Below, piece after piece: positions 5,494 to 48,119 of a stretch of 64,000 bases of DNA (its first letter is position 1; each line of letters starts with the position of its first letter). A model generated the notes under the pieces. It did not search any database. It saw nothing but the letters and a program-made list of their open reading frames with translations, and was not told where the DNA came from. Source of the stretch: Longimicrobiales bacterium (lineage in GTDB: Bacteria > Gemmatimonadota > Gemmatimonadetes > Longimicrobiales > Gaopeijiaceae); the NCBI GenBank assembly GCA_965238005.1, contig OZ250165.1, forward strand, positions 1,248,001 to 1,312,000, in the 5' to 3' direction. Made by a program: the position numbers and the translations under genes.

Positions 5494-6253
5494 GCACCGT
5501 CTCCTTGTCTAGCAACTCCGAACCCAGCGGCGAAGCGGTCCTCAAGCCGGACACAGCGGAGTGGGCCAGCGAAGCACTTCCGCGGTTGCCAAGCGGGTGG
5601 AATATTTGCCTATTCGATGGTCGGTTCGGGCGAGCAAGGTCGCTGGCTGGTGCCGTTCTTGGCCAGACCGAAGCGGCCGGGAAGCGAGCTCACAGCCATC
5701 CCCATAGACGAGCGGCCAGCCCATCTTCGGAGTGGCCGCTTCACTGCCGACCCTGTCCCGTCCCCCTGTCACATTCGGGGCTCCTCATTCGTTTCCATGC
5801 TCGATGAGAGTTCCTAGCCAGACTGAAGGTATGGAGTACCCAATGAAATCGAGAGTTTTTGTACTTATTACGGTGGTGGAGCTTGTGCTTGCGGTGGTGA
5901 CTGCGGTGCTGGCGGGATGCGGCGACGACCCCACGTTTCCCAGCGAACTCCAGGGCGGAGTACTCGCGACGTTCCAGGTCGAGGCGGAGCAGTTCAAGCT
6001 CTGGGTGACCAACGAGAGCACGATCCAGCAGATCCTGGATCTGCAAGCGGGCACCAGCACCGCGTCGATTCCGAACGGGCCACTCTTGGAAGGGGCTGGA
6101 CCGGCCGCATACAACAGCCCCTACTCCTGGCACCTCGACGCGGTCGAAACCGAGATGGCCGACGCCACCATCGAGCTCTGCAGCGGGCTCCCGAGTGGAG
6201 TTGACCCGCTTTGGTGGACACCTCAGTAGTGAGGGAGACAGGAGGAGTCCACG

Positions 6254-6568
6254 ATGCCAAGAACACATGCGCCGTACCCGCCGGAGTTTCGGCGGCAGAT
6301 GGTCGAGTTGGTCAGGTCGGGCCGCTCCGTGGAGGAGCTGGCCCGGGAGTTCGAGCCCTCAAACGGGGCGATACGGAACTGGGTCAAACAAGCTGACTTG
6401 GATGAAGGCCGTCGCAGTGACGGGCTGACGACGGAGGAGCGTGGGGAACTCAGGCAGCTTCGGCGTGACAACAAGCGTCTGCGCATGGAGCAGGAGATTC
6501 TAAAAAAAGCCGCCGCCTGGTTTGCTCGGGAGAGCAACTCGATCCCGGAACGGGGTTCGAGTTCATGA
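6254..6568 (+). CDS. IS3 transposase OrfA (HTH)
   Basis: YPPEFRRQMVELV...EQEILKKAAAWFA; A7G slippery site at 6502-6509 for -1 frameshift into OrfB. Confidence 0.95.
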   Translation: MPRTHAPYPPEFRRQMVELVRSGRSVEELAREFEPSNGAIRNWVKQADLDEGRRSDGLTTEERGELRQLRRDNKRLRMEQEILKKAAAWFARESNSIPERGSSS

Positions 6569-7416
6569 AGACGAATCAGGCCGACTTCCCTGTGCGGGCG
6601 ATGTGCCGTGTGCTGGATCTCTCCCCCAGCGGCTACTACGCCTGGTTGGATCGCGAGCCTTCGGCTCGGGCGAAGCGAGATGAGGAGCTCACAGAGCGGA
6701 TCGAGACGGTCTGGCGCGAGAACCGAAGGGTCTATGGCCGGCCCCGCATCTACGCGGACCTCAAGGAAGCTGGCGAGCGGGTCGGTGAGAAGCGGGTGGG
6801 CCGGCTCATGAAGCAGGCCGAGATTGTGGGAGCTAGCCGGAGGCGGCGCGGCCCGAAGACGACCAGGCGCAACGAGGACGCCCGTCCCGCGCCGGATCTC
6901 ATCGAGCGGGACTTCAGCGCAGACGGGCCAGACCAGTTGTGGGTGGCCGACATCACCTACATCCCGACCTGGGCGGGGTTCTTGTACCTCGCGGTTGTGC
7001 TCGACGTCTGGAGCAGGCGGGTGGTCGGGTGGTCGATGGCTACGCACCTGCGCACCGAGCTCGTCCTGGACGCGCTGAACATGGCGACCTGGCAGCGCCG
7101 GCCCGAATGCGTCATCCATCACAGTGATCAGGGAACCCAGTACACCTCGATCGCCTTCGGCCTACGCTGCAACGATGTCGGTGTGCGGCCCTCGATGGGC
7201 TCCGTGGGCGACGCCTACGACAACGCGATGTGCGAGAGCTTCTTCGCGACGCTCGAGTGCGAGCTACTCGACCGGCAGCGCTTCCGGACCCAGGCCGAGG
7301 CGAAGATGGCCGTGTTCGACTTCATCGAGGGCTTCTACAACCCCCGGAGGCGACACTCGGCACTGGGTCAGCTGTCGCCCATCAACTTCGAGCGTCGCCA
7401 CGGAGCGGCAGCATGA
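6565..7416 (+). CDS. IS3 transposase OrfB (DDE/rve)
   Basis: WVADITY, HHSDQGTQY, DNAMCESFF and YNPRRRHS motifs. Confidence 0.95.
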   Translation: MKTNQADFPVRAMCRVLDLSPSGYYAWLDREPSARAKRDEELTERIETVWRENRRVYGRPRIYADLKEAGERVGEKRVGRLMKQAEIVGASRRRRGPKTTRRNEDARPAPDLIERDFSADGPDQLWVADITYIPTWAGFLYLAVVLDVWSRRVVGWSMATHLRTELVLDALNMATWQRRPECVIHHSDQGTQYTSIAFGLRCNDVGVRPSMGSVGDAYDNAMCESFFATLECELLDRQRFRTQAEAKMAVFDFIEGFYNPRRRHSALGQLSPINFERRHGAAA

Positions 7417-7949
7417 GAAACCTGCGTGGCCAAGTTGCCCTTTACTCCCCCGCTGCGCGGGGGAAGCTTTCCTCTCCCCAGCGAGGGGGACAGACTATAA
7501 ACCTCAGTGTTCACCCGTCCACTGAAACGGGACAGCTCCAGAGTTTCGTTGAGGAGAACCTGGATTCGTGGCTGGACGAAGTCGGACAGTACTGCCCCTG
7601 GTCGGCACAGTTGCTCAGCGTGGAGGACTACCGCTGACCGAAGCAGGACACTTTCGTTGTGGGTCTCGGGAACCATTAGGATCGCCGATGTATACCCCGT
7701 AGGGTAAAATGCACGAGCGCTCAAAAAAGTTCTTTACCGGATGACGCCGGATCGGTCCGGGATGATCCCCTACTTACCCTACCCGCGGCGGTGGAGGCGA
7801 CAGCCGGTGGTGCTGAGCTGCGACATCGACAGCGACCGGATGCTGATCACTCCGTTTTACACACCTTTTGAACTTACTTCGTGAATATCGAGGCCCGGAT
7901 CTTCGGAGGATCAAAATGAAACAGGATAAGAAACGAATGCGGATCCTAG

Positions 7950-16598: not shown

Positions 16599-17648
16599 AT
16601 GAAACTCCCGGAAGCCCTCAAGCGAGTCCCGGAACTGCTGCGGGAACTCACCTACGTAGATGTTGCTCTCGTACCAGATGCGGTAGTTCAGGGTCACACT
16701 CGGCATGGTCCCGACCTCGTGCTGAGTGTTGCGGACGGTGTTTTCTGGGTTGAGTACAAGCCACGAAGCGTAGCGGAGTCGATCGGCGGGGCTCTCGCTC
16801 AAGTGGATTCGTGGCTAGCGCTAGACGGCGTATCAAGCTGGACTCCACTAGTAGTCGTTCCACACATGGGTGACGTCGGACGCAGGCTGTGTGAGCAAGC
16901 AGGTGTGAACTGGTTGGACCTGTCAGGGAATGCGCATGTCCGGGCACCGGGCCTGAACGTAAACGTCTCCGGACAGCCGAACCTCTACCCGGCCACTGGG
17001 CGTCCTCAGAACCTCTTTGCGCCCAAGGCCGCGCGGGTGGCGAGGGCCCTGCTGATGCACCCAAACCGCCGGTGGTCACATCAATCACTCGTTTCTGAAA
17101 CTGCCCTCTCGAAAGGCTATGTCAGCAAGTTACTCAGCCGTATGGAGACGGCAGCATTCGTCGAGAAGGGTGAGGGTCTCAACTACGTGCTCCGAGATTC
17201 GGAGTCGCTCCTCACAGCGTGGACGGAATCGTATGACTTCACGCGGCAGAGAGTGGTCAGAGGCTTCGTAGCCGAACGCACCCCTGAGGCGATCCTCAGG
17301 CGACTGGTTGAGCGACTGAATGGGATCGCAGTGAGAGTTGCTATCACCGGTCTGGCTGCAGCATGGCACTACGATCGTCATGCTGGATACCGACTCTGTT
17401 CCCTATACGCTTCGCCCATGCCCGTGTCCGAAAGACTGGCCGAGTTCGGCTTCCGGCAGGTGGAAAGTGGTGCGAACACGTGGCTGGTCGAACCTTCCGA
17501 TGACAGCGTGTTCACCGGTGCTGTCGCAGGAGATGGCCTGCCCTATGTAAGCCCACTCCAGGCGTACCTCGACCTGAAGGGTCACCCCGAACGAGCGGCA
17601 GAAGCGGCCGATGTTCTCCGCCCGCGGGTGCTGGGGGTGGCCGGATGA
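16599..17648 (+). CDS. Type IV toxin-antitoxin AbiEi-like antitoxin/regulator
   Basis: GVNWLDLSGNAHV, wHTH-like LSKGYVSKLL, TGLAAAW and VSPLQAYLDL...ERAAEAA motifs; overlaps the downstream NTase start (ATGA). Confidence 0.75.
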   Translation: MKLPEALKRVPELLRELTYVDVALVPDAVVQGHTRHGPDLVLSVADGVFWVEYKPRSVAESIGGALAQVDSWLALDGVSSWTPLVVVPHMGDVGRRLCEQAGVNWLDLSGNAHVRAPGLNVNVSGQPNLYPATGRPQNLFAPKAARVARALLMHPNRRWSHQSLVSETALSKGYVSKLLSRMETAAFVEKGEGLNYVLRDSESLLTAWTESYDFTRQRVVRGFVAERTPEAILRRLVERLNGIAVRVAITGLAAAWHYDRHAGYRLCSLYASPMPVSERLAEFGFRQVESGANTWLVEPSDDSVFTGAVAGDGLPYVSPLQAYLDLKGHPERAAEAADVLRPRVLGVAG

Positions 17649-17966
17649 AGGACAAGCCTCAGGTAGCTTCAGGGTATTCGCCTGAATGGGTAGCGGATGC
17701 GCGGGCCGCCCTCCTGTACGCCGCCACTGTCTTGGGCGATCTACTCGATGAAGACCTCGTCGTTGTAGGCGGACTGATTCCAAGTATCCTCATTGCCCAG
17801 GATCCACCGCCGGAGGGCGTGCCACTCCACCCGGGCACGATGGACCTGGACTTGGGACTGAGCCTTGGGCTTCTTGACGATGCCCGGTACTCCGAGATAG
17901 CTAAGCGGCTCCGGCAGGCGGGGTTCGAGGTACACAAGAATGATGTTGGTAACGCGGTGCTCCCTT
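17645..17966 (+). pseudogene. AbiEii-like nucleotidyltransferase toxin, truncated by IS3
   Basis: VVVGGLIP...HPGTMDLDLGL (GG...TxDxD) polbeta-type NTase motif; cut after about 107 codons. Confidence 0.75.
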
Positions 17967-18090
17967 TGGAGCTGTCCCGTTTCAGTGGACGGGTGAACAC
18001 TGAGGTTTATAGTCTGTCCCCCTCGCTGGGGAGAGGAAAGCTTCCCCCGCGCAGCGGGGGAGTAAAGGGCAACTTGGCCACGCAGGTTTC

Positions 18091-18942
18091 TCATGCTGCC
18101 GCTCCGTGGCGACGCTCGAAGTTGATGGGCGACAGCTGACCCAGTGCCGAGTGTCGCCTCCGGGGGTTGTAGAAGCCCTCGATGAAGTCGAACACGGCCA
18201 TCTTCGCCTCGGCCTGGGTCCGGAAGCGCTGCCGGTCGAGTAGCTCGCACTCGAGCGTCGCGAAGAAGCTCTCGCACATCGCGTTGTCGTAGGCGTCGCC
18301 CACGGAGCCCATCGAGGGCCGCACACCGACATCGTTGCAGCGTAGGCCGAAGGCGATCGAGGTGTACTGGGTTCCCTGATCACTGTGATGGATGACGCAT
18401 TCGGGCCGGCGCTGCCAGGTCGCCATGTTCAGCGCGTCCAGGACGAGCTCGGTGCGCAGGTGCGTAGCCATCGACCACCCGACCACCCGCCTGCTCCAGA
18501 CGTCGAGCACAACCGCGAGGTACAAGAACCCCGCCCAGGTCGGGATGTAGGTGATGTCGGCCACCCACAACTGGTCTGGCCCGTCTGCGCTGAAGTCCCG
18601 CTCGATGAGATCCGGCGCGGGACGGGCGTCCTCGTTGCGCCTGGTCGTCTTCGGGCCGCGCCGCCTCCGGCTAGCTCCCACAATCTCGGCCTGCTTCATG
18701 AGCCGGCCCACCCGCTTCTCACCGACCCGCTCGCCAGCTTCCTTGAGGTCCGCGTAGATGCGGGGCCGGCCATAGACCCTTCGGTTCTCGCGCCAGACCG
18801 TCTCGATCCGCTCTGTGAGCTCCTCATCTCGCTTCGCCCGAGCCGAAGGCTCGCGATCCAACCAGGCGTAGTAGCCGCTGGGGGAGAGATCCAGCACACG
18901 GCACATCGCCCGCACAGGGAAGTCGGCCTGATTCGTCTTCAT
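18091..18942 (-). CDS. IS3 transposase OrfB
   Basis: Translation identical to 6565-7416. Confidence 0.95.
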   Translation of the reverse strand: MKTNQADFPVRAMCRVLDLSPSGYYAWLDREPSARAKRDEELTERIETVWRENRRVYGRPRIYADLKEAGERVGEKRVGRLMKQAEIVGASRRRRGPKTTRRNEDARPAPDLIERDFSADGPDQLWVADITYIPTWAGFLYLAVVLDVWSRRVVGWSMATHLRTELVLDALNMATWQRRPECVIHHSDQGTQYTSIAFGLRCNDVGVRPSMGSVGDAYDNAMCESFFATLECELLDRQRFRTQAEAKMAVFDFIEGFYNPRRRHSALGQLSPINFERRHGAAA

Positions 18943-19253
18943 GAACTCGAACCCCGTTCCGGGATCGAGTTGCTCTCCCGAGCAAACCAGGCGGCGGCTT
19001 TTTTTAGAATCTCCTGCTCCATGCGCAGACGCTTGTTGTCACGCCGAAGCTGCCTGAGTTCCCCACGCTCCTCCGTCGTCAGCCCGTCACTGCGACGGCC
19101 TTCATCCAAGTCAGCTTGTTTGACCCAGTTCCGTATCGCCCCGTTTGAGGGCTCGAACTCCCGGGCCAGCTCCTCCACGGAGCGGCCCGACCTGACCAAC
19201 TCGACCATCTGCCGCCGAAACTCCGGCGGGTACGGCGCATGTGTTCTTGGCAT
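18939..19253 (-). CDS. IS3 transposase OrfA
   Basis: Translation identical to 6254-6568. Confidence 0.95.
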   Translation of the reverse strand: MPRTHAPYPPEFRRQMVELVRSGRSVEELAREFEPSNGAIRNWVKQADLDEGRRSDGLTTEERGELRQLRRDNKRLRMEQEILKKAAAWFARESNSIPERGSSS

Positions 19254-19311
19254 CGTGGACTCCTCCTGTCTCCCTCACTACTGAGGTGTCCACCAAAGCG
19301 GGTCAACTCCA

Positions 19312-19525
19312 GGCCTTTCAGCCGTTCAAGGTGGATTTCCTGCTCCAGGACGTGCACATCAAGGTCGGCGACTGTGTTGCTGATGGGCAGGTAGTACATG
19401 GCGATGGCGTCAACCTCATCCTGAACTCTTCCCACCAGTCGAGTAGAAAACACTGCCACCACCACCATTAAAACCAACACGCCCAAAACGATGCCAAAGA
19501 TTTTTAACCCGACGGGAAATCTCAT
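19312..19525 (-). pseudogene. N-terminus of a membrane sensor (TM helix plus helical extracytoplasmic segment), truncated by IS3
   Basis: MRFPVGLKIFGIVLGVLVLMVVVAVFS...; AGGAGG SD upstream; runs into the IS end. Confidence 0.6.
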
Positions 19526-19595
19526 ATCGATGACCTCCTGAGCTGTGACCCTAGCCGAGCCTTAAGAAAGCGTCAAGTTAGGCCTGGTCCGATGT

Positions 19596-19854
19596 GATGT
19601 CCTGCCGCTCGTCTGCCCGGGGCACCGCGCGAAGCGTGGTCGCGGTGCTTCCATGAGCATCATCGCCTTCATTAGGGATCCCGTTCCCGTTCGCTCCATT
19701 CTGTCCTATCTCGATCTCCCCACCCGATCCCCTCCACTGTCTCCCGCTCGGGCCCCGCGGGCACCACGCAAAGCGTGGTCGGGCATCTTCGAGTTCGATC
19801 AGACCGGCGGGTTCGACCCCACCGATCCGGAACCCATTCCCGACCACGCTTCGC
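19596..19854 (+). pseudogene. C-terminal remnant of an IS91-like (Y2 HUH) transposase carrying micro-insertions
   Basis: DVLPLVCP[GHRAKRGR]GASMSIIAFIRDPVPVRSILSYLDLPTRSPPLSPARAP...FEFDQT matches the CPxCGxxMxIIAFI...PARxPP tail of this family. Confidence 0.7.
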
Positions 19855-20080
19855 CGTTCATCTCGACGGAGTGTGCAGCGACCCGGAACCACGGGTCCGG
19901 TTTCGCGCCTTCGGCCCCTCGGGGCTCGAGTTGGAGCTTCTAGGCTGGATTGAGGAGCCCGTCCTCCGCGGCCGCATAACCGACGCGCTCAACACCGAGG
20001 TGTATCGCCGTTTCAACCAGGAGGGAATCGAGATCCCCTACCTGAAGCAGGACGTGTACATAAAGGAGATGCCTCGGTAG
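19855..20080 (+). pseudogene. C-terminal remnant of an MscS mechanosensitive channel
   Basis: DPEPRVRFRAFGPSGLELELLGWI...DALNTEVYRRFNQEGIEIPY motif; no TM region. Confidence 0.75.
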
Positions 20081-20336
20081 AGCCTCCTCGAGTCCTTTTC
20101 TCCCAAGAAGACCTTCAACGGGAACAGCCGCGTGGACTACAAGGATCAGGAAGCCATCGTGGCCATACGCTATCGAGCATGAGCTGGGTGAAGGCCCGTT
20201 TGCGCAAAAGCGGCGCGTCATCTACGATCAGAGCTTGAACAAATGGGGCCTTCCGGTCCCGCCGCCGCTGTAGACGCCCCGTAGGACGCCCGCCCGACGA
20301 CGAGACCTCTAGGCCGCTTGTCACGAGGGCTCAGGA

Positions 20337-39609: not shown

Positions 39610-39711
39610 CTTCGCACGGTGCCTGCTTACGCTACGCCGCGTCGTCCCGCCTTGATCCCACGGCGCCCCGACCCTCTTGGTGGCTCGCGAACTTCGGCAA
39701 TGGAACACTAG
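39610..39711 (-). mobile_element. Partial copy of the CTAG-ended MITE
   Basis: Reverse complement matches the first ~100 nt of 47934-48119; its CTAG overlaps the stop codon of the neighbouring gene. Confidence 0.85.
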
Positions 39712-47933: not shown

Positions 47934-48119
47934 CTAGTGTTCCGTTTCCGAAGATCGCGAGCCACCAAGAGGGCCGGGGCGCCGTGGGATCAAGGCGGGA
48001 CGACGCGGCGTAGCGCAAGCGGGCACCGCGCGAAGCGTGGTCGCAAGGAGTCCCAACGCCGAGCCCACGGATGCACCGTGCCCTCGACTGGCCGAGACAC
48101 TTTGGTAACGGGACACTAG
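47934..48119. mobile_element. Complete 186-bp non-autonomous element (MITE) with CTAG termini
   Basis: IRs CTAGTGTTCCGTTTCCGAAG / CTTTGGTAACGGGACACTAG; no credible ORF; two partial copies elsewhere in the window. Confidence 0.85.

Follow-up and report, generated by a model that had tools for sequence, protein, structure and literature searches.

The window analysed here is a 64-kb stretch of the genome of a Longimicrobiales bacterium, in which the same 22-nt sequence lies in the tail of an IS91-like transposase gene and inside a MITE. How did so short a hairpin come to occupy such different places? A sequence-only reading had listed five copies (three full and two partial) and taken them for a minimal mobile unit or for the fixed scar of a recombinase. 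All five are present in the sequence, and with their hosts they are the following.

19596..19854, + strand: host, a 3' fragment (259 bp) of a gene for an IS91-family (Y2 HUH) transposase, sharing 98.5% identity with genome 350924-351183
19620..19641, + strand: element core, 22 nt (site D), at the CPxCG codons of the IS91-like transposase tail
19759..19780, + strand: element variant (site E), 2 mismatches, pair 8 being A-T and the loop having decayed to AAA, within the ARAPPQG codons
19842..19854, - strand: 3' half of a reverse copy (site F), ending inside the GCGAAGC loop, at the end of the IS91 fragment
39610..39623, - strand: 5' portion of a copy of the element, lying where a truncated MITE A (39610-39711) is broken off
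47934..48119, + strand: host, MITE A, with CTAG-ended inverted repeats
48021..48042, + strand: exact element core in MITE A

Copies and empty alleles of the 22-nt hairpin

When up to three mismatches were allowed, the window contained three matches to the 22-mer, and 100 of 100 shuffles contained none. A genome-wide count at up to two mismatches, as the sequence-only reading had proposed, gave 61 copies in the 4.84-Mb genome (39 exact, 18 with one mismatch and 4 with two), to which a third mismatch added none. The boundaries of the 22-mer are sharp, and the flanks are unrelated between copies in this genome. Both partial copies are full copies, each cut within the GCGAAGC loop, and the 98.5% identical paralog of the IS91 fragment has the complete reverse copy. 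C19841 is the extra G of the site-F insert, and G19642 probably belongs to the site-D insert.

We considered the possibility that the sequence is native to its host elements, or a chance match. The inserts had been placed at the CPxCG and ARAPPxG codons of IS91 tails, and the empty versions of these codons, CPACG and ARAPPQG, were found in an intact homolog (L129) that matches Pfam Y2_Tnp (E 2.9e-26) and Zn_Tnp_IS91. Its entire tail is free of all three inserts: it reads CPACG, ARAPPQG and PEPIPEIEFDQ where the window reads CPGHRAKRGRG, ARAPRAPRKAWSG and PEPIPDHAS. The inserts are therefore not native to IS91 tails, since empty alleles exist at all three tail sites. For site E the empty allele is also present inside this genome at 623067 and for site F at 3050365, while that of site D occurs in L129 and in public contigs. 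Contigs from four public runs have loose ends at 19758/19781 and at 19840, followed by the empty sequence; this comparison is one of contigs, and the best run may be the source of the window itself. MITE A was found filled in 34 copies in this genome and empty in 10, the latter having TACG at the place of the element and the restored stem that had been foreseen. Searched against plasmids, MITE A gave no match.

In its favour, a native or chance origin has the fact that mobile DNA houses 76 of the 76 copies of the wider family in this genome, and that one database match, at metagenome locus L165, is a chance match. These 76 copies fall in about 12 site contexts; the flanks of 75 are multicopy DNA, which makes up 17% of the genome, and the remaining one is an element with inverted ends. 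Such an origin is nevertheless hardly credible in view of the empty alleles at all four window sites, the sharp boundaries in unrelated contexts and the absence of matches in shuffled sequence. The earlier suggestion of an inserted mobile unit was supported by those empty alleles, with a net gain of 18 nt at each of the four sites, and the element is almost certainly an inserted, spreading sequence, likely among the smallest mobile DNA elements.

A tree of 15 IS91 tails indicated that insertion recurs. Both strongly supported clades hold filled and empty alleles at the same codons, which forces at least two changes there, and the junctions at the repeatedly filled codons also differ. The same IS91 codons have thus been struck more than once. 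The window piece itself is a pseudogene fragment, whose CxxC motif was destroyed by the insert.

Several observations concern the surroundings and the later fate of the copies. The IS91 fragment lies, without IS91 ends, between the stub of a membrane-protein-like ORF (19316-19595) and the C-terminal stub of an MscS channel (19855-20080). Upstream, an IS3-family element with rve and HTH_Tnp_1 matches (17964-19315; second copy at 6192-7543, about 20 copies in the genome) terminates the reading frame of the ORF at 17645; directly before this ORF lies one of 349 residues without a Pfam match (16599-17648). Three rearrangement breakpoints fall inside the GCGAAGC loop of the element (window 19854, window 39610 and genome 1972826), which suggests that the tip of the hairpin breaks easily or is cut. 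At genome 3237952 and at loci L051 and L175, the left flank of site D is fused to the right flank of site E across one copy; these fusions are deletions via recombination between two element copies. Another micro-insert, of about 30 nt and with two GNA mini-hairpins on the reverse strand, occurs in IS91 tails (L084:1547-1580, L017, L117 and L134), and a related short insert is found five times in a MITE family of this genome.

Family, fold and hosts

The 22-mer belongs to a family of 22, 24, 26 or 28 nt that reads GGG(C/T)ACC, a stem of 2-5 free pairs, S-C-GNA-G-S, the return stem and GGTC. In the window copy the fold is ACCGCGC-GAA-GCGTGGT with GGGC and the final C unpaired, which reproduces the hairpin with a GGGC foot of the sequence-only reading, and the stems of the family covary. 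The invariant ends, GGGC-ACC and GGT-C, surround this covarying stem and the C(GNA)G loop. By itself the exact 22-mer is no more stable than its shuffles (z -1.27), so that structural support comes from covariation. With a pattern free of any pairing requirement, 73 of 84 planctomycete copies were fully paired, compared with 7.5% by chance; G-T positions numbered 26 and A-C positions 4, and any base occurred at the middle of the loop. Among 22 hand-picked variants, 98.7% of cells were paired, which exceeded 500 of 500 shuffles. According to the available part of PMC13037366, the GCGNAGC DNA mini-hairpin with its GNA triloop is very stable and nuclease resistant. The pairing, the wobble bias and the free loop middle indicate that the GGGC strand likely folds, with a DNA-type GNA triloop. 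The tail and the ACC/GGT base never covary, and this invariance suggests a protein contact. Rfam covariance models gave no match at E up to 1 in window 19400-20100.

The 22-mer was found in 8 of 41 relatives, this genome counted, in at least 99 stretches, with Gemmatimonadota, Planctomycetota, Eisenbacteria, Methylomirabilota and Myxococcota among the matches listed, and in at least 120 metagenome stretches. The family pattern occurs in 59 of 151 Thermoguttaceae genomes, with up to 252 copies and 2 control matches, and in 13 of 301 Gemmatimonadota genomes, where 8 control matches imply that some singletons are due to chance. It is thus common in Thermoguttaceae and patchy in Gemmatimonadota. 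Viral contigs contained no exact 22-mer; of 56 viral loci with the family pattern 13 were fully paired, and the others are likely chance matches.

The invariant ends and the presence of the same 22-mer in at least five phyla would also be expected of a fixed scar, left by a larger element or a recombinase after excision. This alternative, which the sequence-only reading had put forward, is very improbable: the stems vary in a compensated manner, there are four length classes, and nesting is repeated, with 13 copies (9 of them distinct) inside the element's own loop. Furthermore, no long parent element was found, long-range end pairs numbering 54 compared with 56 in the control. Nor did a transposase or recombinase gene flanked by the motif, another proposal of that reading, come to light, since among the genes beside 504 copies none recurs except the IS91 transposase host.

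In this genome the element is housed by MITEs, IS91 remnants and an IS3 gene; in other genomes it is housed by REP-like repeats (the main planctomycete host), long tRNA arrays and its own loop. IS91-like genes form the dominant protein-coding host (34 loci), and a long tRNA array can carry as many as 10 copies, placed in anticodon, D and T arms. Hosts are thus mostly mobile or dispensable DNA. Selection against insertion into needed genes probably accounts for part of this bias, but not for the recurring sites. In two other loci the element lies in frame inside a dehydrogenase-like ORF (L022:1501-1522) and a P-loop ATPase-like ORF (L211), both labels being taken from the translation; L022 exceeds three distant homologs by 4-6 residues. 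A search of this genome for homologs of L211, L025 and L195 found none.

Insertion occurs in both orientations, which argues against a strand-specific process. In one tRNA array 5 copies point forward and 5 are reversed, and such mixing within one array speaks against RNA-level and lagging-strand routes. At one MITE site, read by hand, the core fills one and the same gap of four bases, forward in 4 loci and reverse in 3, the orientation independence of the gap being that of this single site. An automatic search for opposite-orientation pairs returned one pair, at a palindromic repeat. In one contig (G475:C5) all 6 copies of the 22-nt pattern are on one strand across 1 Mb. Arrays in which several tRNA genes are interrupted by family members were seen at L189, L164, L148, L292 and L346; the last of these arrays encloses an HNH nuclease gene and is carried by a viral contig of 94 kb. 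A tRNA intron was ruled out by the two orientations and by the positions in D, T and anticodon arms.

Target bases lost and the predicted mechanism

We compared filled sites with empty alleles from this genome and the retrieved loci, in which 421 family copies represented 306 flank contexts. An empty homolog was available for 173 of these 306 contexts and defined 79 events, with a core gap of 3 nt in 15, 4 nt in 36, 5 nt in 18 and another length in 10, mostly poor matches. The gap thus measured 3-5 nt in 69 of 79 events, and in 126 of 128 contexts with at most 4 flank mismatches. The smallest replaced length, obtained for 58 events, was 3 nt in 2, 4 in 17, 5 in 22, 6 in 12, 7 in 4 and 8 in 1, corresponding to a loss of 4-6 nt in 51 of the 58. 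This spread of 3-8 nt is loose for a recombinase. Again with at most 4 flank mismatches, among 64 junction types the base adjacent to the core departed from the empty allele in 33 on the left and 28 on the right, as opposed to 40 of 768 background positions (5%), which implies that the insert often carries one extra base; because the empty alleles are homologs and not true pre-insertion ancestors, single junction bases can mislead. This base is usually a G at the 3' end, and in planctomycetes a C at the 5' end. Most simply, the target loses about 5 nt and gains the core with 0-1 base on either side of it.

The replacement of 4 nt by 22, as first proposed, agrees with the net gain of 18 nt at all four window sites, but does not hold as a fixed rule. 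At site F the core-adjacent base differs from both empty alleles, so that 5 nt were replaced by 23, an exchange with the same net change of +18, and the family mostly loses 4-6 nt. Preservation of the reading frame, presented earlier as a property of the element, was not borne out: the net change was divisible by 3 in just 30 of 58 events, and the IS91 piece of the window is not an intact gene in any case.

No target duplication was found: at 35 of 42 sites any direct repeat was no longer than 1 nt. There was no microhomology either, the lost bases matching the element ends 0.83 times compared with 1.21 expected, and 1.02 compared with 1.11; priming by annealing is ruled out by this lack. Within 40 nt of 151 distinct sites no target motif stood out, save for G/C-rich bases next to the junctions, and a remote-cutting restriction enzyme is unsupported for want of a clear distal target motif. 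Predicted DNA folds tend to leave the middle of the lost segment unpaired (0.71, compared with 0.3-0.6 nearby). Sites were modestly enriched at the apex of host hairpins (18 of 162, compared with 4% in shuffled sequence), with no such enrichment in Gemmatimonadota (1 of 42), and insertion does not depend on a host hairpin.

The insertion rule of the hairpin element is unusual. The reading that we prefer, with a probability of roughly 0.45, is that a single-stranded DNA hairpin is put into a staggered cut of about 5 nt by a candidate, probably tyrosine-type, enzyme. The non-autonomous element would travel as folded single-stranded DNA, and an enzyme acting in trans would join the hairpin into the predicted break. 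That the GGGC strand folds as DNA is highly probable from its pairing pattern; that a protein recognises the unvarying tail and the base of the stem, with the nuclease-resistant mini-hairpin keeping the fold in place, is rather probable. We tentatively predict a cut in each target strand, the two about 5 nt apart, with target 3' ends joined to element 5' ends; the intervening bases would be left as flaps and disappear. By established chemistry, applied here by inference, this way of joining at a staggered break yields loss and not duplication; its polarity would be the reverse of that of DDE enzymes, which gives duplications, and would fit tyrosine-linked chemistry. The predicted enzyme is slightly more apt to be a host or widely shared protein than the product of a gene beside the element. 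Copy number would then be inflated passively by the spread of filled MITEs, REP-like repeats and IS elements.

Enzymes were screened in 44 genomes, namely 18 high-copy and 22 zero-copy Thermoguttaceae and 4 Gemmatimonadota carriers. None of the eight families screened (Ku, Y1, integron integrase, RVT_1, TopIB, Prim-Pol, Cas1 and Y2) tracked the element in this set, in which many genomes are incomplete, kinship is not given, and the high- and zero-copy groups are defined by the element itself. Ku was found in 2 of 18 high-copy genomes (one below the cut-off) and 4 of 22 zero-copy genomes, integron integrase in 1 of 18 and 6 of 22, and Cas1 in 11 of 18 and 17 of 22; TopIB occurred in 1 of the 44 genomes. 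The RepB primase profile matched in no genome, controls included. For DUF559 and GIY-YIG, searched in 5 carriers, nearly all matches lay in long open frames, and no small stand-alone gene family emerged.

The element could instead live parasitically on HUH transposases. In this case GGGC would serve as a guide foot for Y1 TnpA/TnpA-REP or for the Y2 enzyme of IS91, which would move the hairpin by single-strand peel-and-paste and lose a few bases through a second nick. The layout is indeed REP-like (a 4-nt foot plus a palindrome), IS91-like genes and REP-like repeats are the prominent hosts described above, and, in the accessible portion of PMC8266576, 5'-phosphotyrosine links attacked by a 3'-OH provide a polarity able to give loss. 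Yet Y1_Tnp was present in 18 of 18 high-copy and 22 of 22 zero-copy genomes alike and in none of the 4 Gemmatimonadota carriers (G000, G001, G002 and G045), and a custom Y1 profile, run without a positive control, had no match in this genome. An element copy lay within about 1.5 kb of 1 of 30 Y1 loci, and Y2_Tnp occurred in 7 of 18 high-copy compared with 11 of 22 zero-copy genomes. Moreover, the dinucleotide predicted from the guide is absent from the junctions, and orientations are mixed in one locus, as opposed to the lagging-strand bias of IS608 described in the part of PMC5027513 available. We consider this account unlikely, and the sequence-only reading's pointer to TnpA-REP as the HUH mobiliser found no backing in the four carriers or in Y1 linkage.

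Target-primed insertion can delete target bases. It is conceivable, though also unlikely, that a primase-polymerase or a reverse transcriptase makes the hairpin, and that target-primed synthesis into a break leaves small deletions and ragged ends, in keeping with the one-base heterogeneity of the element ends. GNA mini-hairpins figure in primase or polymerase start signals (ssiA/RepB', the phage G4 origin and the N4 promoter) in the text of PMC13037366 that was available. The distribution of the enzymes argues the other way: RVT_1 was found in 11 of 18 high-copy compared with 18 of 22 zero-copy genomes and had no match in this genome, and Prim-Pol in 4 of 18 compared with 14 of 22, and in none of the 4 Gemmatimonadota carriers. 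So do the lack of microhomology and the presence of several variants together in one array, which means that there is no single template.

If joining of a folded hairpin into a staggered break proves true, homology-free oligonucleotide insertion would be a chemistry new to mobile DNA biology. More speculatively, the element may be a gene-less DNA replicon of 22 bases that crosses bacterial phyla by overwrite insertion, a folded oligonucleotide taking the place of about 5 target bases with neither homology nor duplication, and the predicted catalyst a protein outside the transposase, integrase and reverse-transcriptase families tested; SDRs and further GNA-hairpin micro-inserts may rest on this chemistry too. 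Since the element damages IS91 and IS3 transposase genes and the tRNA genes of arrays, it may limit other mobile elements.

Relation to known systems

The closest known kind are the SDR repeats of cyanobacteria, beside which the hairpin element is set by description and not by sequence. SDRs reportedly have a structure supported by compensatory changes, nest in one another and lie within other repeats. As far as the literature examined shows, how repeats of 20-30 bases move has been a standing question since SDRs were first reported (Elhai et al. 2008, Genome Res 18:1484), and the hairpin family makes it testable. Its substrate is defined by invariant ends, tolerated stem changes and a folded strand, its product by the loss of about 5 nt, and its target sites recur; the high-copy and zero-copy genomes within one bacterial family constitute a panel for an enzyme search. 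In the available portions of PMC3116915, PMC5861425, PMC4390886, PMC13756078 and PMC2884548, SDR1-8 of heterocystous cyanobacteria are very small (SDR5 has 21 nt), dispersed, apparently mobile and without a known mobiliser; SDR5 enters HIP1 at an exact point, between bases 3 and 4, and its function is still called unknown by a 2026 paper among these. Like SDRs, the element is short (22-28 nt, beside about 20-27 nt for SDR-type repeats), occurs in 151 distinct contexts with filled and empty alleles, forms a hairpin with compensatory changes and nests in itself. Unlike them, it is found in other phyla, has another sequence grammar, lacks a target motif and removes about 5 nt; the 22-mer scan gave no heterocystous cyanobacterial host among the matches listed.

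We found no description of the hairpin family in the literature, in a search in which the motif itself was not the query and subscription papers were mostly beyond reach; the parts of PMC8421152 (on tRNA arrays) and PMC4476775 that were available mention no such insert. REP/REPIN sequences, mobilised with TnpA-REP (RAYT), include GTAG- and CGTC-tagged REPs in the excerpts available of PMC8266576 and PMC3733652. The hairpin element shares with them a 4-nt unpaired 5' foot followed by a short imperfect hairpin, a length of about 20-40 nt and a high copy number. In contrast, its foot is GGGC, the GTAG/CGTC tag is absent, and neither a linked Y1 gene nor a guide-predicted cut site accompanies it; it enters REP-like repeats, IS genes and tRNA genes, where target bases are lost.

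PATE are miniature derivatives of IS200/IS605 elements. With the latter, as presented in the available text of PMC5027513, the hairpin element has in common the absence of target duplication and a folded single-stranded DNA substrate, which is proposed here. It differs from both in having one hairpin rather than two ends, no target tetra- or pentanucleotide, a loss of 4-6 nt of target, mixed orientation within a single tRNA array and no Y1 match in four carriers. From a MITE of a DDE transposon it is set apart by its asymmetric ends and by direct repeats that do not exceed 1 nt at most sites. Rickettsia palindromic elements and the GC clusters of yeast mitochondria are likewise short, palindromic inserts, and can occur in frame within genes and in structured RNAs; they are longer, or make a duplication, whereas the hairpin element keeps the frame in about half of its events.
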